From a virus, in the IMG/VR virus record IMGVR_UViG_3300028840_006907, positions 320,001 through 384,000 of that record: a stretch of 64,000 bases of DNA; one strand, written 5' to 3'. Under the pieces are notes generated by a model, which was not told where the DNA came from, made no database searches, and saw only the letters and a program-made list of their open reading frames with translations. Shown piece by piece: positions 17,950 to 58,233 of this stretch (the first letter of the stretch is position 1; every line of letters begins with the position of its first letter). The translations under genes and the position numbers were made by a program.

Positions 17950-18816
17950 ATGGACAAAAAATATGAAGACCGAATGCTTGTCGTTTTTATCTTAGTGGGT
18001 CTAGTTGGTGGGTCACTGTTCTATTTCCTTAAAGATGGTCAGCCTCTCAGCTCAATTTTCATGACTTTCGCTCTATCAAGTATCCTCTATCGATTCCTGG
18101 GTGGAATTGGCCAAGGCACAAAATTCAGTGTCGGAGCATTTCGGTTAGGTGGTAGTGCAGCCTTCATGATCGGCTGTATCTTTTTTATCAACGAGTACAT
18201 TTTCCCAAAACCAGAAATCAACACCATTGTTTTAAGTACTCCCCAGGATCGATGGGTTCCTGTTAAATACCCTACAGGTGAGTATGTGAATGTTAAGGTA
18301 TTAACTCCTTCTGGAGATACTATTATTCATGGTATAAGTAGTGTAGAAATGGATGCTTTAAAAAAAAGGGAATACTGCATCACAAAAGAAGGGGAGAATT
18401 TTTATATCTGTTCTAATGCTGATTCAACGGTAATAGGCCATCTTAAGTTTGAAGATGTTTTTAAAGCTATTGAAAATGATATCCATATCACAGTCCAAGA
18501 TTTTCGGGTTTTTAAATTATACCCTAATCCTATAAATGACCCAAAAGATCAAGAAAAGAAATATAAAACTACTGATTCACTTGATGCTGTAAGTCAGACT
18601 TTTCCCATAGTAATCGAAGTCGATAAAACTAATATGAATATAAAGACAAAGGATGACAGTTTATTAACATCAGATGTACCTCGTAGTGAAAAATTCTATT
18701 TAGTTGATATTGAAAATGAGTATTTTATAGTTACAATATTACATGCTAATTTAGAAACATCAGAAAGTAAATGGTATTCTGAGTTTCTTGTTGGAAAAGT
18801 ATCTATTAATCGATAG
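17950..18816 (+). CDS. hypothetical membrane protein
   Basis: 288 aa; AAAGGAGG RBS; ~3 N-terminal hydrophobic helices. Confidence 0.45.
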   Translation: MDKKYEDRMLVVFILVGLVGGSLFYFLKDGQPLSSIFMTFALSSILYRFLGGIGQGTKFSVGAFRLGGSAAFMIGCIFFINEYIFPKPEINTIVLSTPQDRWVPVKYPTGEYVNVKVLTPSGDTIIHGISSVEMDALKKREYCITKEGENFYICSNADSTVIGHLKFEDVFKAIENDIHITVQDFRVFKLYPNPINDPKDQEKKYKTTDSLDAVSQTFPIVIEVDKTNMNIKTKDDSLLTSDVPRSEKFYLVDIENEYFIVTILHANLETSESKWYSEFLVGKVSINR

Positions 18817-18823
18817 AGGTAAT

Positions 18824-19252
18824 ATGAGCAATATGAAAATTGCAATAGCTTCTTATATGCGTTATACAGTTGTTTTAGCCAACTTGAAAGAGCATTTCAA
18901 AAGAGAACTCGATCTAGCTGGCCTATTTGATAAAGACTCCGATTATAATGGAATGATAGGTAACGCTGTTATGGACCTGTGTAAAGTCTTCTCTGATCAG
19001 GGCCATAGCGGGTTCTCCGCGAACTGGGTTCTGAAATTGTTCGATACTCTTGGTCACTATAAAACGTTGACTCCTATTACAGATAATCCGAAAGAGTGGA
19101 TGAAGGTTACAGATGGCCTCGGTAGAGATGAACCGGTCTGGCAGAGTAATCGAAATCCTTCCCTTTTTTCTAATAATGGTGGAAAGAGTTATTATGATGT
19201 AGACGATAAGAAGCGTAAGAAGATCCGCTCTAAAAAGTTTAAAAAGAAATAA
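18824..19252 (+). CDS. hypothetical protein
   Basis: Track start 18788 is TTG; in-frame ATG at 18824 has an AGAGGT RBS. Confidence 0.4.
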   Translation: MSNMKIAIASYMRYTVVLANLKEHFKRELDLAGLFDKDSDYNGMIGNAVMDLCKVFSDQGHSGFSANWVLKLFDTLGHYKTLTPITDNPKEWMKVTDGLGRDEPVWQSNRNPSLFSNNGGKSYYDVDDKKRKKIRSKKFKKK

Positions 19253-19312: not shown

Positions 19313-19327
19313 TCATAATTTATTATA
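19313..19327 (+). promoter_or_regulatory. candidate leader promoter motif TTATAATTATATATA
   Basis: 15-bp motif in the AT-rich leader ~90 bp upstream of the first repeat; identical 15-mer recurs at 56411-56425. Confidence 0.35.
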
Positions 19328-19414
19328 ATTATATATAGTATCTATAGCTCTTTGAAATTGGTAGAAATTTACTGAATCCGTAAGCCCTTGATCTTATGAT
19401 ATTTATGTTTTAGT

Positions 19415-20311
19415 ATATTCCCCGCGTATGCGGGGCTGGGCCGATAAATCTTAAAATGGGTAAGATAAAAACCTGAATATTCCCCGCCCATGCGGGGCTG
19501 ATGCGTAATATAAATAATTTTTGATCAATTATAGGACATATTCCCCGCCCCTGCGGGGATTCCCCGAAAATATTGATGTTTTTTTGTATATATCAAAAAT
19601 ATTCCCCGCCCCTGCGGGGTTGATGCGAATACCGAACAAGTGCAGGGCCTGCAGATTATATATTCCCCGCGTATGCGGGGCTGGCGCGTAGGAGGTAAAA
19701 ATGAAATCGAAACATATTCCCCGCGTATGCGGGGCTGGTTCTAGAATTGAATGAAGCGCTGAATTTTCCCCGCCCATGCGGGGCTGAACCGACCGGGAAA
19801 TCATATCTATCCATAAATCTTGCATATTCCCCGCGTATGCGGGGCTGAACCGATACTAGATTGGGACATGTGTTTACCCAGAACATATTCCCCGCCCATG
19901 CGGGGCTGAACCGATTTCAAAAAACACGACCAGATAAAGATGAATATTCCCCGCGTATGCGGGGCTGTGTCAGGGTGAGAGGCTCGTGACGAATAATTTT
20001 TCATATTCCCCGACTCTTCGGGGTTGCCCCTCAGGAAGCTATTGAATTGCAAAAAACTGTATTCCCCGTCTATGCGGGGCTGTCTCTCCACATGCAAATG
20101 TAAGTAGTAAATACTGAATATTCCCCGGCATTCCGGGGCTGATCCCGTCTGGTAAAAACATAAAATGGTTCATCATAAGTATTCCCCGCCCATGCGAGGT
20201 TGGGCCATCCAGTACTGCTACTGCTAGGACCGTATTCCCCGCCCATGCGGGGCTGATCCTACGACTGGGACAGAAGTATTCATTGGTTTCACCCCGGCCT
20301 TTCCGGGGTCT
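19415..20311 (+). CRISPR. CRISPR-like array, 16 palindromic repeats with type I-E-like repeat sequence; non-canonical (degenerate 3' ends, variable spacing); no cas genes in window
   Basis: Consensus ATATTCCCCGCGTATGCGGGG(CTGAACCG) with repeat starts at 19415, 19477, 19538, 19599, 19660, 19714, 19764, 19824, 19885, 19944, 20003, 20059, 20118, 20179, 20232, 20288. Periods 50-62 bp (mode 61). Unique intervening sequences; AT-rich leader upstream; last repeat degenerate. Confidence 0.55.
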
Positions 20312-20316
20312 AAAAT

Positions 20317-21408: not shown

Positions 21409-23859
21409 TTATATTTTATTATTTTTTCTAAGGAGAGCTATCTGACGTTTAATCCATCGAGGAGTTTCTTCAAGAGTTTCAGCCATTTGATTTCTTGTCA
21501 TCTTTCCACGATTATCTATTATGAATTGGAGCTTTTCTTCAGTCTTTCTATCTTTGGTACAACCAATAGGGTTTTTTGTAGATAATGTACCTTTTTTTTG
21601 TAAGAATTTTATTTGAGATTTAACCCATCGCTCTGTTTCATTGAGAGCTTTAGATAATTCTTTTTTAGTTTTATTTTTATAATTAGTGATTATATACTGC
21701 GTTTTTTCAGGGGTTCTTCTACATTTTGTTGAGAATTTAGAAATCTCTTTTAAATAGGTAAATTTCTCAGTGGGTTGTTTAATATTTATATCTTCAATAC
21801 ATTTTGAATTATATATTTCTTTTTCTCTTTTAGGATAAGGTTTAGTAACATAATTTTTTAATTTGTTAATTTTTTTCTTATCTCTTTTATTTTCACCTAT
21901 TAATAAGACATATTTATGTTTTCTTTCAGTAATAAATTTTTGAGCTTCAGATAATATATTTTTATTCCAATTATTCCATTGAACTTTAATTCCTTCTGGT
22001 ATGGTACTCATATTTTTAAAACCATTTTCTTTAAACCATTCCTTTTGAGAAATAATCCCTTGATTTTTACACCATTTTTTAAATGCTGATGTACGTTTTA
22101 GAGATTGAGCTGAAAAAGTCCTATTATTTTTAATGGAAGGATGTTTATATAAGTATGAACTTCCAAAGTTATTTCCTAGATAATCAAATCCACAAGCTTG
22201 GTAAATAGTCCCTATTTCAAGAGCTTTAGGATCAGCATAACCTATGAAAGCTCTTTTAGAAGTGTTATTAGCCATCCAATTACAAGCAAACCTTATAAGA
22301 CGGCTACCCAGGTTTTTCGGGGTCCATGAGGCAGTGGCACCTCTTTGAATTAAAGCTTCATATTTGGGAGTATCTTTACCTAGAATTTTGGAATATGCTG
22401 TGGGTTCATTTATAAATAATACTCCTGCGAGAATATTATTGTATCTGGCTGTGAAGCACCATTTTGGTATTACTCCAATTGTTCCTAACCATTCATATTT
22501 TTTTATAAATTGGACCATTTCATTATTAAATTTTTCTTCAGATAATGTAAAAGAAGTAGCTTTTAAAGAAGAGTGATTGAAATCGATATTTTTTTTATCT
22601 TCATCAATCCATTGAAGTTTCTTTTTATATTGGTGGCATATAAAAGTGGTCTTGTTTTTACTGTTAATTTTATTTTTTATTAAATCAATGATAATACCTT
22701 TTCGGATAGCTTCTTTTACATCATCAGACCAAAATCTAATCAAATTGGGTATATTTTTATTTTGGATTTCATCATTCTTAATATTTTCTTTTATTTTTAA
22801 TGCCCTTGGAGACGTATCATTTTCTCTTATTTCTTTACCATGCCAATAATTACCATCATATTGTACCCATAAGTTATAGCGAGGCATATAGAAATCAATT
22901 ACATGTTTAATAATTGGGTGCATAACTTGATGTTCTACAAAAGGATCAAATACAATAAGATAATTAAAAAAGTTATTTTCTTCATCTGAGGATGAGAAGG
23001 AATTATTTAGTTTAACTGTTTTATATGTTTTTTCTTTTATTTCAACATTCTGTTGGGGATTTTCAACGCCATATCTTTCAATATTAGTTTCAGTGATTTT
23101 TTTCTTAATCTCTGGAGATTGGAATACATTGTCAACCCCGTATCTTGATTGTACTGTTACTTTAACTTTTCTTTTTACTTCTTTAGATTGAGAGGGGTAT
23201 TCTACTCCTCGTTTTTCAATATTAGATTGACGGGATTTTTCTTTCATTGAGTTTAGTTGAGTAGAATATTCTACGCCATAACGTTTTTTAATAGTTTCGT
23301 TATTATGTTTAACTATATCTTCATTTATTTTATCTCGATTCCTTCTTAATCCTAGTTTAATAGCTCTTTCTCGGATGGCTTTCCAGGTCCTGTTTTCAAA
23401 GTAGAGCATAATAAATTCCATAGAATTCTTTTCATATACTTCTTTTAAAAGATCATCTTCTTTGGGTGACCAGAAGTCTTCCCTAGCAGGAGCGCTTTTA
23501 CCACCATCAATCATTTCTTGTTTAATTATTTCAGGATTTCTTTGAAGGTTTAATTTTTGAGCATTACTTCGGATGCTTTGCCATGATCGATTCTTGAATT
23601 TAGAAAGGATAAATTCTTTTGAATTATTTTCATATATATTTTTAAGAATATTTATCTCTTCGGTTGTCCAGGAATCTTTTCTTGGTCCTCTTTTTTTACG
23701 GTCTTCATTTATAAGGTCAGGATTACGGTGAAGATTTAGCTTACGTGCTTTTCTACAGATGGTTGTCCAAGATTTATTTAATTTGGAGATAATAAATTCT
23801 TTTGAATTATTTTTATATATTTCTTTTAATAAATTTTCTTCTTCTATTTTCCAACGCAT
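21409..23859 (-). CDS. multidomain hypothetical protein: N-terminal triplicated helical repeats, YGV(E/D)N repeats, possible Vsr/PD-(D/E)xK-like nuclease core
   Basis: Start set at second Met (MRWKIEE) with AAGAGG RBS; track start is 23916. Three ~50-aa repeats (SWTTEEINILKNIYENNSKEFI...); three RYGVxNxxQ repeats; VIDFYMPRYNLWVQYDGNYWHG resembles a Vsr/DUF559-type core. Only minus-strand gene in the plus-strand block. Confidence 0.5.
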   Translation of the reverse strand: MRWKIEEENLLKEIYKNNSKEFIISKLNKSWTTICRKARKLNLHRNPDLINEDRKKRGPRKDSWTTEEINILKNIYENNSKEFILSKFKNRSWQSIRSNAQKLNLQRNPEIIKQEMIDGGKSAPAREDFWSPKEDDLLKEVYEKNSMEFIMLYFENRTWKAIRERAIKLGLRRNRDKINEDIVKHNNETIKKRYGVEYSTQLNSMKEKSRQSNIEKRGVEYPSQSKEVKRKVKVTVQSRYGVDNVFQSPEIKKKITETNIERYGVENPQQNVEIKEKTYKTVKLNNSFSSSDEENNFFNYLIVFDPFVEHQVMHPIIKHVIDFYMPRYNLWVQYDGNYWHGKEIRENDTSPRALKIKENIKNDEIQNKNIPNLIRFWSDDVKEAIRKGIIIDLIKNKINSKNKTTFICHQYKKKLQWIDEDKKNIDFNHSSLKATSFTLSEEKFNNEMVQFIKKYEWLGTIGVIPKWCFTARYNNILAGVLFINEPTAYSKILGKDTPKYEALIQRGATASWTPKNLGSRLIRFACNWMANNTSKRAFIGYADPKALEIGTIYQACGFDYLGNNFGSSYLYKHPSIKNNRTFSAQSLKRTSAFKKWCKNQGIISQKEWFKENGFKNMSTIPEGIKVQWNNWNKNILSEAQKFITERKHKYVLLIGENKRDKKKINKLKNYVTKPYPKREKEIYNSKCIEDINIKQPTEKFTYLKEISKFSTKCRRTPEKTQYIITNYKNKTKKELSKALNETERWVKSQIKFLQKKGTLSTKNPIGCTKDRKTEEKLQFIIDNRGKMTRNQMAETLEETPRWIKRQIALLRKNNKI

Positions 23860-23962
23860 ATGAGTACCTCTTTTTAGTATATTACTTATTATAACAGGTA
23901 TTAGAGTTATTGTCAATATTTCATTTAATAAATATGGAATTCATTAATTTATAGGGAAAAAG

Positions 23963-24316
23963 ATGGAAATTGAAATTTATGGAAAAGAATTTGTTTCTTG
24001 TAATATTTTAAGGGCTGAAGTAGGTACAAATTGCCCACAGGGGGGAGATACAGGACATGGTGGTCGAACTATTTTAAGATTGATTGATGAAGCAGCTACT
24101 GATATAAGTATAAAAGTAGATGGTCAGCCTTTAGGTAGTATAAAAACTTTGGAAATATTATTAGGTGGCGATACTGAGTGCGACACTTTTATGAATGCTC
24201 TTAATTTTGCCTTGAATGTATTAAAAGATCATAATCCAAATTATGAAATGGATCCACATATAAGAGGTTCTGGGAAGGGATTGATACAAAAAGATTATAA
24301 AATAGAAACATTATGA
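23963..24316 (+). CDS. hypothetical protein
   Basis: 117-aa ORF; stop overlaps next start (ATGA). Confidence 0.4.
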   Translation: MEIEIYGKEFVSCNILRAEVGTNCPQGGDTGHGGRTILRLIDEAATDISIKVDGQPLGSIKTLEILLGGDTECDTFMNALNFALNVLKDHNPNYEMDPHIRGSGKGLIQKDYKIETL

Positions 24317-24861
24317 TTACAAAGATAGAATTATTAGAAAAATACAGAACTTTAAAACCGTTTGTTATGGAGCCTAATCTAGGAGTCAATCTTATTGTTG
24401 GTGAGAATGGTTCGGGTAAATCCTCATTGTTAAATATTATAAAGGAAAATGCTCCTGAGGTAAGATTAGAAATTGAAGGTACTATAAATTATTACCATTT
24501 TGATACGGAAAAGGACAATCCTCGAACTCAAGGCACTCTTCCATTTAATGCTCCTGGTGATGTTTATGCCTATCATCTGACGTCACATTTCCAGAGTCAT
24601 GGTGAAGTACTATTTCCTATTTTAAATCTTATGAGAACTTTTGAGAACAGGATTTTATTCTATGATGAACCGGAGAGTGGGGTCTCGATTAATAATCAGT
24701 TAAAGGCATGTACTGCGATAAGAAAAGCGGTAAGGAATGGTTGTCAACTTTTTATTGCGACTCATTCTTATATATTTATAAAAAAATTTAAAAAAGTCTT
24801 TGATTTAAAGACATATCAATTTGTAAAATCAGAGGATTGGTTATCTCAATTTAGGATATAA
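24313..24861 (+). CDS. small P-loop NTPase (ABC/AAA_21-like ATPase fragment)
   Basis: 182 aa; Walker A GENGSGKSS and Walker B-like ILFYDEPESG; short for a full ABC ATPase. Confidence 0.5.
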   Translation: MITKIELLEKYRTLKPFVMEPNLGVNLIVGENGSGKSSLLNIIKENAPEVRLEIEGTINYYHFDTEKDNPRTQGTLPFNAPGDVYAYHLTSHFQSHGEVLFPILNLMRTFENRILFYDEPESGVSINNQLKACTAIRKAVRNGCQLFIATHSYIFIKKFKKVFDLKTYQFVKSEDWLSQFRI

Positions 24862-56269: not shown

Positions 56270-56320
56270 TTTAGCTAGATTTTCTCTTACATACAGTTTT
56301 TAAAAAGATGGTCTTCTAAT

Positions 56321-56350
56321 GGAGGGAGTGGTTGCCCTCCATTTTTCTTT
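56321..56350 (+). terminator. rho-independent terminator
   Basis: GGAGGG - loop - CCCTCC followed by ATTTTTCTTT. Confidence 0.5.
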
Positions 56351-56410
56351 CTTATAGTGGTTTTTCACTTCTTCATTGTAGTATTTATTTGTATTCCATT
56401 TAGAAATTAG

Positions 56411-56512
56411 TTATAATTATATATACTTCTCCCCGTCCTTTTACGGGGCTGTCTCACACACACAGATTCTCAAGTACGGAAAATGATTAAATACCCTCGG
56501 CTCTTTCCGGGG
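56411..56512 (+). ncRNA. candidate promoter-driven small RNA carrying two CRISPR-repeat-like hairpins (mini-array or repeat-mimic RNA)
   Basis: TTATAATTATATATA at 56411-56425 (identical to 19313-19327) directly followed by hairpin CCCCGTCCTTTTACGGGG+CTG (56431-56451) and a second degenerate copy at ~56494-56512, 63 bp apart; between a terminator and the next gene. Confidence 0.4.
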
Positions 56513-56605
56513 ATTCAGGGAAAGATTCACAATTTTTCCCTTTTCTTTTACCTCCTCCAATTTGATAATGTATTAATATTTCCCTGACTATATATAGGAG
56601 TATAT

Positions 56606-57216: not shown

Positions 57217-58233
57217 ATGAGTTGTGGCGTGGATATAGGAACATGTTTCCTTGTAAGTGCTAGAAATGATGATAATAATCAAATTCAAATAAAGTCTATT
57301 CGGGATGCTTTTCTTGACATGGAGAACAACCCCCAAGTCAAAAACATGATGAAAATGTCAGGTGCAAATTTTATTGAATCTGACGACATTCTTTACATAA
57401 TTGGTGATTCCTCAGTGGTAGTAGCAAACATATTCCAGAAAGAAGCTCGTAGACCATTGAGTCGGGGTGTTATTTCTCCTGGTGAACTTGAAGCTGAGAA
57501 AATTCTGTTGGTTTTGATAAAGGATATATTGGGGAATTGTAAAGTGCAGGATGAAACTTGTTATTATTCGGTTCCTGCCGAGCCCATAGATCATGAAGCT
57601 GATGTGATCTATCACCAAGCTATGTTTAGTAAACTTATTGGTTCATTAGGTTACAAGCCAGTTGCTTTAAATGAGGCAGCAGCAATCATTTATAGCAATT
57701 GTGGAAAGGAAAAATTTTCGGCGATATCTATTTCTTTTGGTGCCGGTTTAACAAATGTTTGTCTTATGTATCAAACGATTATTGGTATGGCTTTTAGTGT
57801 AAATAAAGCTGGAGATAATATTGATGACGGTGCTGCTCAGGCTCTGGGAACTACTTCCAGTAGAATACAGTCAATAAAAGAAAAGGGTATAAATCTTCTT
57901 GATCCTAATGAAGGTGATCCGAAGACTTTCCGGGAACGTGAAGCTATTATCATTTATTATAAAAGTTTGGTTTTATATGTACTTGATAAAATCAAAGAGG
58001 AATTTTTGAAACGTCAAGGTACGATTGAATTACCTAATGCTATTCCGATTGTGCTTTCAGGTGGAACTAGTTTGCCGAAGAATTTTAAAGAGTTTTTTGA
58101 AGCCGGTTTTAATGAAGTAAAGGATAAATTCCCAATTCCGATTTCAGAGATTAGAATGGCAGAACAACCATTAAATGCAGTAGCACAGGGTCTATTAATT
58201 GCCGCTATGAACCATGATGAAGGGTCAAAATAA
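57217..58233 (+). CDS. actin-fold ATPase (MreB/ParM/Alp-like, ASKHA superfamily)
   Basis: 338 aa; AAGGAGG RBS; N-terminal GVDIGT phosphate-1-like motif, VLSGGTS and C-terminal NAVAQGLLIAAM. Confidence 0.55.
   Translation: MSCGVDIGTCFLVSARNDDNNQIQIKSIRDAFLDMENNPQVKNMMKMSGANFIESDDILYIIGDSSVVVANIFQKEARRPLSRGVISPGELEAEKILLVLIKDILGNCKVQDETCYYSVPAEPIDHEADVIYHQAMFSKLIGSLGYKPVALNEAAAIIYSNCGKEKFSAISISFGAGLTNVCLMYQTIIGMAFSVNKAGDNIDDGAAQALGTTSSRIQSIKEKGINLLDPNEGDPKTFREREAIIIYYKSLVLYVLDKIKEEFLKRQGTIELPNAIPIVLSGGTSLPKNFKEFFEAGFNEVKDKFPIPISEIRMAEQPLNAVAQGLLIAAMNHDEGSK

Follow-up and report, generated by a model that had tools for sequence, protein, structure and literature searches.

A probable one-spacer type I-E mini-CRISPR array between two genes of a huge phage

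Why would a phage carry two CRISPR-repeat-like hairpins in the gap between two of its genes, directly behind a promoter-like sequence that recurs in the leader of a much larger array? The question is raised by the locus at 56.4 kb of a 64-kb stretch of viral DNA (IMG/VR record IMGVR_UViG_3300028840_006907; the window), which is part of the Joint Genome Institute (JGI) contig Ga0180437_10000019 (388,651 bp). The source is a huge phage, represented additionally by a sister contig of ~470 kb. The original prediction preferred to regard the hairpins as promoter-proximal solitary repeats and thus as an RNA anti-CRISPR, and named a mini-array with one spacer as the alternative. It is this alternative, a promoter-repeat-33-nt spacer-repeat-terminator unit, that the evidence favours. 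We assign a probability of roughly 65% to the reading that the 56.4-kb locus is a self-contained one-spacer type I-E mini-CRISPR array. This reading builds on the anatomy of the unit, the membership of its hairpins in one family, their conservation and turnover in relatives and the cas genes carried by the same contig. Numbers of the form L010 (L002-L082) denote loci retrieved from other contigs or regions.

The 15-mer TTATAATTATATATA at 56411-56425 (+) is indeed identical at two sites of the window, the second exact copy lying in the main-array leader at 19323-19337 (+) and thus ten bases from the position given in the original prediction (19313-19327). Shuffled sequences predict 0.01 exact copies in the window instead of two, and among 80 fetched loci (556 kb) the 13-nt core is confined to orthologues of the 56.4-kb locus and the main-array leader. 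Therefore, the 15-mer is not a common AT-rich word unlinked to hairpins, which the original prediction had named as a refuting outcome; together, the two counts also exclude a general phage promoter. Hairpin 1, CCCCGTCCTTTTACGGGG followed by CTG, occupies 56431-56448 (+3) and begins within 5 bp of the 15-mer, as predicted. The motif CCCCG-N4-12-CGGGG was found 16 times in the window (0.02 expected), 15 times within or beside the main array and once at 56431-56448; the other 63 kb are devoid of it. When a covariance model trained solely on the 15 main-array repeats was run on the window, its top non-training match was 56430-56456 (14.2 bits, E ~0.05), and no other match had E<1. Hairpin 1 is thus a variant of the array repeat, and a hairpin followed by CTG fits the type I-E class of known CRISPR repeats. 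The second degenerate copy, expected about 63 bp further on, exists as a hairpin (CCTCGG-ctcttt-CCGGGG, 56495-56512) 64 nucleotides (nt) after the first, but receives no score from the array model. We count hairpin 2 as a repeat because of its position, its spacing and the orthologous arrays described below. With both of their stems recurring verbatim in the cas-adjacent arrays (see below), the hairpins at 56431-56448 and 56495-56512 are two direct repeats of one family, each of which should be capable of forming a Cas6e-type hairpin.

The type I-E repeat layout of 5 nt, hairpin and 8-nt handle, which also describes the main array, divides the interval into the following elements:

56318-56353 (+): intrinsic terminator of the upstream gene, which encodes 124 amino acids (aa); stem 56318-56343 followed by a T-run; delimits the unit at its 5′ end
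56389-56425 (+): promoter-like region; TTGTAT (56389-56394), 17 nt, TATAAT (56412-56417) within the 15-mer
56426-56456 (+): repeat unit 1; CTTCT, 6-bp hairpin CCCCGT-ccuuuu-ACGGGG (56431-56448), handle CTGTCTCA (56449-56456)
56457-56489 (+): spacer (guide) of 33 nt, CACACACAGATTCTCAAGTACGGAAAATGATTA; type I-E length class
56490-56512 (+): terminal repeat unit 2; AATAC and hairpin CCTCGG-cucuuu-CCGGGG (56495-56512)
56517-56551 (+): closing intrinsic terminator; 11-bp stem 56517-56541, then TTTCTTTT

The 46 nt between the hairpins, minus the 8-nt handle and the 5-nt lead, leave a spacer of 33 nt. A repeat-spacer-repeat arrangement with the exact type I-E spacer length argues against two solitary repeats. 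Unit 2 lacks a 5′ handle; ATTCAGGG runs from its hairpin into the terminator, which begins four bases on. While the upstream terminator had been recognized in the original prediction, the closing one had not. The predicted promoter (TTGTAT-17-TATAAT, 56389-56417) lies within 250 bp upstream of unit 1, with a predicted transcription start near 56424, 6-7 nt ahead of hairpin 1. Through its TATAAT, the shared 15-mer is consistent, at the level of consensus, with the claim that the unit and the array leader have a promoter element in common; a promoter scan offered TTTAGA-17-TATACT (56399-56427) as an alternative. The predicted fold of the unit consists of the two hairpins and the terminator (z = −2.1), and the centroid fold displays the downstream terminator. 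The interval contains no open reading frame (ORF) of at least 40 aa. Small ORFs of 22-39 aa overlap the hairpins or terminators, are without support and were dismissed. Neither the 56.4-kb locus nor the main array matched an Rfam family, and no tRNA was found.

Is the unit maintained in other phages? Homologues of the downstream 186-aa gene led to syntenic contigs, and in five of them the hairpin unit stands at the same intergenic site, next to a flanking protein that is 57-76% identical. The orthologous loci contain three hairpins in L012, three in L010/L011, four in L029 and approximately 6-7 in L030. Farther relatives (L013-17 and L026-28; protein 54-58% identical) possess the upstream terminator only and no unit. 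This terminator, ATGGAGG...CCTCCAT and a T-run, is also present in L010, L029 and L027, and the promoter-like sequence is kept as TTGCAT-17-TATAAT followed by TATATAG in L010/L011 and L029. In every unit-bearing locus a terminator directly follows the last hairpin, in L010, L012, L029 and L030 in the form of GGAAGGG...CCCTTCC and a T-run. Sequence and conservation in relatives thus back the suggestion of the original prediction that the unit may be transcribed independently between the terminator and the next gene.

The hairpin stems vary in a compensatory manner (CCCCGT/ACGGGG, CCTCGC/GCGGGG, TCCTGC/GCGGGA, TCCCGT/ACGGGG, CCCCGG/CCGGGG and CCTCTG/CAGAGG). In 31 hand-registered units, 98.4% of the stem cells are paired compared with 40-57% when the partners are slid, although the percentage is inflated as the units were chosen because they fold. 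Double-sided changes number 31 and affect four of the six pairs; what is informative about the pairing is how varied the types of compensatory pairs are at fixed positions. The handle follows a different rule. All eight non-terminal units from the window, L010, L012 and L029 carry [AC]TG[GT]C[CT]C[AG], in which T2, G3, C5 and C7 are kept, whereas it is missing from all four terminal units of the same loci, where ATTCAGGG, ACCCAAAG, ATTATAAG and ATGATAAG are found. Selection thus retains the handle only ahead of a spacer and the hairpin wherever a spacer ends, as expected if every spacer has to be bordered by a 5′ handle and a 3′ hairpin, which is what the making of CRISPR RNA (crRNA), and not of decoys, requires. 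Comparison of L010 with L029 revealed 80-88% identity in the flanks and ~82% in the repeat units, but 32-41% in the spacers, with a different number of units. Such a gap between spacers and flanks means that spacers have been exchanged, beyond mere drift. The spacers of L029 are 32, 26 and 26 nt long.

Does the phage possess proteins that could use such a guide? None of the 53 ORFs in the window belongs to a Cas family. Near and distant DNA searches of INPHARED with the region, the array and the unit revealed no relatives and returned nothing or noise (E≥0.6). A peptide scan of IMG/VR with the downstream gene also gave no relatives, so the phage group appears to be absent from the copy of IMG/VR used. 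A metagenome repeat scan led to the sister contig twice, at the main array (L076), which is identical there, and at another array (L077), downstream of which an ORF encodes Cse1/Cas8e (Pfam E = 4.6e-48). Outside the window, whose flanks on the contig amount to ~320 kb, the 22 kb around the cas operon were examined. The operon and the features of the main array are located as follows:

354,454-361,316 of Ga0180437_10000019 (10001-16862 of L079): type I-E effector operon, from gene-neighbourhood retrieval and profile hits
19323-19337 of the window (+): copy of the 15-mer in the main-array leader, −10 TATAAT at 19324-19329
19415-20316 of the window (+): main array; 15 degenerate type I-E-like repeats and a terminal hairpin, compensatory stems

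The gene order of the operon is cas8e (647 aa), cas7e (361 aa), cas5e (216 aa), cas6e (214 aa; 13717-14361 of L079), a 51-aa ORF and a gene for a 743-aa superfamily 2 (SF2) helicase. Cas6e scored 119 bits with TIGR01907 (cutoff 45.2), Cas5e 122.8 bits with TIGR01868 (cutoff 68.95) and Cas8e 116.4 bits with TIGR02547 (cutoff 70.05); Cas7e matched Pfam PF09344 at 1e-52, above the Pfam cutoff and below that of NCBIfam. The helicase has ResIII/DEAD matches and no match to a Cas3 model. Within 10 kb on either side of cas8e, no model for cse2 (cas11), cas3, cas1 or cas2 was found, and a complete type I-E system is thus not present near the operon. The related contig L081 carries the same operon, with no helicase visible, and an array composed of six uniform repeats (CTATTTCCCGCGTGCGCGGGGATAAACCT, 32-nt spacers) and degenerate units with ~20-nt spacers. 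As side observations, Cas8e is ~100-150 aa longer than usual and its C-terminal 270 aa are without any match, and two relatives (L079 1-673, L081 870-1823) share a conserved 317-aa protein with an OB-fold and an HD domain, a conceivable nuclease for the system, whose gene lies 5-9 kb upstream of the operon.

The operon is flanked by two arrays, array A with 7 units (L079 9409-9776) and array B with ~50 hypervariable units (L079 16977-19963). The stems of array B are variable but compensatory (e.g. CCCTGC/GCAGGG, CCCTTG/CAAGGG, CCCCAC/GTGGGG), and both stems of the 56.4-kb locus (CCCCGT/ACGGGG and CCTCGG/CCGGGG) recur in it verbatim, the latter with a 6-nt loop at L079 19317-19334. Likewise, unit 6 of array A has the same handle as unit 1 of the 56.4-kb locus. 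Arrays A and B have CTCTTTGACATTTATA...GGTAGAAAATTAGGGT in common in their leaders; the main-array leader contains it in shortened form (CTCTTTGAAATTGGTAGAAATTT) behind the 15-mer. Main-array units measure 29 nt at a modal period of 61 nt and enclose spacers of 19-33 nt, several of them just 19-27 nt long. Its 15 handles are highly diverse (e.g. CTGAACCG, CTGGGCCG, ATTCCCCG, TTGCCCCT), with T2 and C7 invariant and G3 present in 14.

In the four arrays of the contig, inter-hairpin distances translate into three classes of spacer length, 19-20 nt (n=20), 25-27 nt (n=14) and 32-33 nt (n=14), and spacers of 22 or 29 nt do not occur. Each Cas7 subunit is known to occupy 6 nt of a type I crRNA. The steps of ~6 nt match this Cas7 repeat, which suggests, from the lengths alone, that Cascades of three sizes are formed. 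Shortened spacers have been reported to give complexes with fewer Csy3 subunits (bioRxiv 10.1101/2024.10.29.618823).

What the guides recognize was addressed by target and host searches. The 33-nt spacer has no protospacer in the window, the fetched loci, the 22 kb around the cas operon, INPHARED or IMG/VR, where every sixth base was left free over the first 23 positions of the scan; the spacer part of the inter-hairpin sequence, proposed as a query in the original prediction, thus remained without a match in both phage databases. With blastn-short, 29 spacers were compared with the window and all fetched loci, and no match rose above the chance level (11-16 nt). A self-target search that ignored every sixth position gave nothing above shuffled spacers in the window or the phage cas locus including its promoter regions, and IMG/VR scans with main-array spacers 4 and 8 gave 0 matches. 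Spacer 1 of array A agreed with positions 6031-6062 of L082 (IMGVR_UViG_3300026549_000042) in 24 of its 32 nt, 21 of them among the first 23. L082 is a 142-kb phage contig of 22% GC, and the match spans the ribosome-binding site and start codon of an ORF. This match is probably due to chance; alternatively, it may represent a seed-type target. With regard to the host, a repeat scan of the GTDB species representatives recovered only Actinobacteria and Lactobacillus type I-E arrays and a few single matches, with no plausible low-GC host, and a repeat scan of IMG/VR recovered only unrelated phage mini-arrays of higher GC content.

From this arrangement we infer how the mini-array might work, that is its transcription, Cas6e processing, Cascade loading and outcome at the target. 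A σ70-like promoter of its own, with a −10 region shared with the main array, would produce an RNA of ~125 nt ending at the intrinsic terminator. Both hairpins would then be cleaved at their 3′ base by the phage Cas6e, whose gene lies on the same contig at a distance of ~290 kb; cleavage after 56448 in unit 1 and after 56512 in unit 2 would release a single 64-nt crRNA (56449-56512). The predicted mature RNA would consist of the 8-nt handle CUGUCUCA, the 33-nt guide and the unit 2 hairpin at its 3′ end, and would be loaded into the phage's own Cascade (Cas8e-Cas7e-Cas5e-Cas6e). The target would be some DNA, such as that of a competing phage, a host gene or a promoter. As the operon encodes a helicase but no recognizable Cas3 nuclease, we consider it no less likely that the complex would bind and silence or displace its target than that it would cleave it.

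Several points weigh against the mini-array. Its repeats are unusually degenerate, and tolerance of such variation by Cas6e is assumed. The promoter call is at the level of consensus only, the −35 element agreeing at 3 of 6 positions. To these come the failure of hairpin 2 to score with the array model, the ~290 kb that separate the locus from the cas operon, the missing protospacer and the inflation of the pairing percentage.

The explanation preferred in the original prediction, an RNA anti-CRISPR (Racr), holds that the hairpins, as mimics of repeats, tie up Cas6e and Cas7e of the host in aberrant complexes and that the intervening sequence is irrelevant. A type I-E-class hairpin just after a predicted promoter in an intergenic region of a phage is the hallmark of the solitary repeat units of Camara-Wilpert et al. 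(2023, PMC10651486), repeats of this class are used by many bacteria, and any abundant non-targeting crRNA would compete for Cas proteins (PMC10651486). By definition, however, such units are without association to other repeats or cas genes (PMC10651486), whereas here a second hairpin follows after an exact spacer length of 33 nt, orthologous loci contain 3-7 units, and Ga0180437_10000019 has cas8e-cas7e-cas5e-cas6e and hence its own Cas6e and Cascade. Handle conservation is limited to units that precede a spacer, the spacers turn over instead of drifting, and no host with a matching repeat was found among the GTDB species representatives. A decoy is therefore the least probable of the explanations considered, and we give it very little credence. 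That the locus is a decaying relic of an old array or a set of ordinary stem-loops (terminators or attenuators), in either case without a guide function today, would account for the degenerate repeats, for unit 2 being missed by the array model, for the lack of a target and for a fold z-score of just −2.1. Decay is difficult to reconcile with hairpins, handle positions, promoter and terminator being kept across relatives whose flanking protein is only 57-76% identical, with compensatory stem changes and with a cassette-like variation of unit number and spacers; nor are such hairpins scattered through the other 63 kb of the window. We consider a relic highly improbable.

A further rival is a regulatory crRNA-like RNA of the Cracr or CreR type, a partly complementary guide that would park host or phage Cascade on the promoter of a host cas gene, a toxin gene or a phage gene, repress it without cleavage and also be in competition with the crRNAs of the host for Cas proteins. 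Cracr arrays (Liu et al., bioRxiv 10.1101/2024.10.29.618823) are phage mini-arrays outside cas loci in which degenerate repeats surround often shortened spacers and units are stacked in multi-unit transcription units; the type I-E cases reported from phages have 2-3 shortened spacers of 21-24 nt. The degenerate repeats around a spacer on a mobile element, ~290 kb from the operon, correspond to this architecture, as do the shortened spacers in the orthologues and in the other arrays of the phage (peaks at 19-20 and 25-27 nt). With no Cas3 nuclease model beside the operon, repression is a plausible output for all of its guides, and a homologue of the anti-Thoeris protein Tad3 adjoins the main array. 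In contrast, the spacer of the 56.4-kb locus is of full length. A Cracr is defined by its similarity to host CreR/CreA and by its partial pairing, over at least 9 PAM-proximal bp, with the promoter of a host cas or creT gene (bioRxiv 10.1101/2024.10.29.618823). Neither the window nor the cas locus of the phage, promoters included, yielded a partial match above the shuffled-spacer null. Moreover, the described carriers rely on Cas proteins of the host, while this phage encodes its own effector. Such a regulator thus appears unlikely, and the one-spacer mini-array serving the phage's own Cascade remains our preferred reading.

How does the mini-array relate to established systems? The phage system resembles canonical type I-E systems (E. 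coli, Actinobacteria) in its repeat layout (5 nt, G+C hairpin of 6 bp closed by a 4-nt loop, handle of 8 nt), in a period of 61 nt with spacers of 32-33 nt and in its homologues of Cas8e, Cas7e, Cas5e and Cas6e. Apart from the four bases of the loop and the stem pair next to it, which is changed from CG to GC and still complementary, repeat 15 of the main array (GTATTCCCCGCCCATGCGGGGCTGATCC) is identical to a Propionibacteriaceae repeat (GTATTCCCCGCATGTGCGGGGCTGATCC). Unlike the canonical systems, the phage has no cse2, cas3, cas1 or cas2 model in the 10 kb next to its effector genes, its repeats are not uniform, many of its spacers are 19-27 nt long and its arrays are dispersed, the one at 56.4 kb having its own predicted promoter and terminator. 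The CRISPR arrays and the CRISPR-Cas systems without adaptation genes described from huge phages by Al-Shayeb et al. (2020, PMC7162821) are similar in that they occur in huge phages (here contigs of 388-470 kb), have compact arrays, show no Cas1/Cas2 near the effector genes and contain a helicase in place of Cas3. The helicase in place of Cas3 and the absence of Cas1/Cas2 were described for a type I-C variant, and use against competing phages or repression of host genes was proposed (PMC7162821). Here, by comparison, the effector genes are of type I-E (cas8e, cas7e, cas5e, cas6e), at least four arrays are dispersed, including a one-spacer unit at a distance of ~290 kb from the operon, hypervariability of the repeats is combined with compensatory stems, and the spacers fall into three length classes ~6 nt apart; no description of these features was found in the portion of PMC7162821 consulted.

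While the single locus is of a known kind, the system with its hypervariable repeats, stepped guide lengths and dispersed promoter-terminator cassettes is a new variant. A joint reading, which we put forward tentatively and with more doubt than conviction, is that the phage employs a nuclease-free and adaptation-free type I-E variant as a multiplex programmable silencer. More than 70 guides would be distributed over at least four dispersed arrays, their repeats drifting while the Cas6e hairpin and two to three handle bases survive. Guides of ~20, 26 and 32-33 nt would correspond to Cascades with 4, 5 or 6 Cas7 subunits, and the 56.4-kb locus would supply a separately promoted and separately timed guide of the longest class. 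If the mini-array reading holds true, a huge phage spreads guides for its own Cascade across the genome as minimal promoter-repeat-spacer-repeat-terminator cassettes, and whole genomes should therefore be checked for cas genes before promoter-proximal repeat hairpins of phages are named RNA anti-CRISPRs. Through their natural mutations, the arrays would also map which features a type I-E repeat requires, namely a 6-bp hairpin with an invariant second pair and handle positions T2, G3 and C7, and they would provide a natural series of shortened guides. Both would be testable and useful for recombination-proof multiplex arrays and compact Cascade tools.

Individual traits of the arrays were also encountered elsewhere. 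AT-rich contigs (33-41% GC), namely L038 (118-7371), L036, L037, L051, L057 and L070, encode cas3-cse1-cse2-cas6e-cas7-cas5 directly followed by an irregular type I-E array with periods of 47-98 nt, partly degenerate repeats and no cas1/cas2 thereafter. Type I-E arrays that are irregular and lack adaptation genes thus exist beyond this phage. Unrelated phage contigs of ~51% GC (L002, L003, L004 and L006 from IMG/VR, and L063) contain a type I-E mini-array with two repeats. It consists of GTTTCCCCGCACACGCGGGGCTGAACCG, a spacer and a terminal repeat ending in CGGGGCAAAAGAAAATGCCGC; here, too, the last repeat has no handle and leads into a terminator. In the metagenome contigs L050, L075, L054 and L033 (49-69% GC), type I-E arrays have a regular period of ~61 nt and nearly all repeats are different (30 distinct units among 35 in L050), showing that repeat hypervariability exists outside this phage group as well.

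The surroundings of the two window loci contain further genes of potential interest. Directly upstream of the main-array leader, 18788-19252 (+) encodes the Tad3 homologue mentioned above, an inhibitor of type I Thoeris (Pfam E = 5e-33), and the main array therefore adjoins an anti-defence gene. Convergent to the array and just past it, 21409-23916 (−) encodes an 835-aa protein with a DUF7487 and a Mom-family (DNA modification) domain, the C-terminus of which has weak matches to helix-turn-helix (HTH)-type DNA-binding domains below the Pfam cutoffs. The 182-aa protein from 24313-24861 (+) amounts to hardly more than the two terminal pieces, N and C, of an ATPase of the ABC/SMC type (among others AAA_15, AAA_13 and AAA_21). 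Possibly a truncated ATPase or a mimic of one, it presumably accounts for the PADLOC matches to three families of defence ATPases (GajA, AriA and PtuA). Downstream of the mini-array, the gene after the 186-aa gene (57217-58233, +) is actin-like and belongs to the Volactin family (E = 1e-63). It is present in all relatives, and in L026 (3597-5693; 698 aa) the Volactin-family gene is split by an intein with a LAGLIDADG endonuclease.

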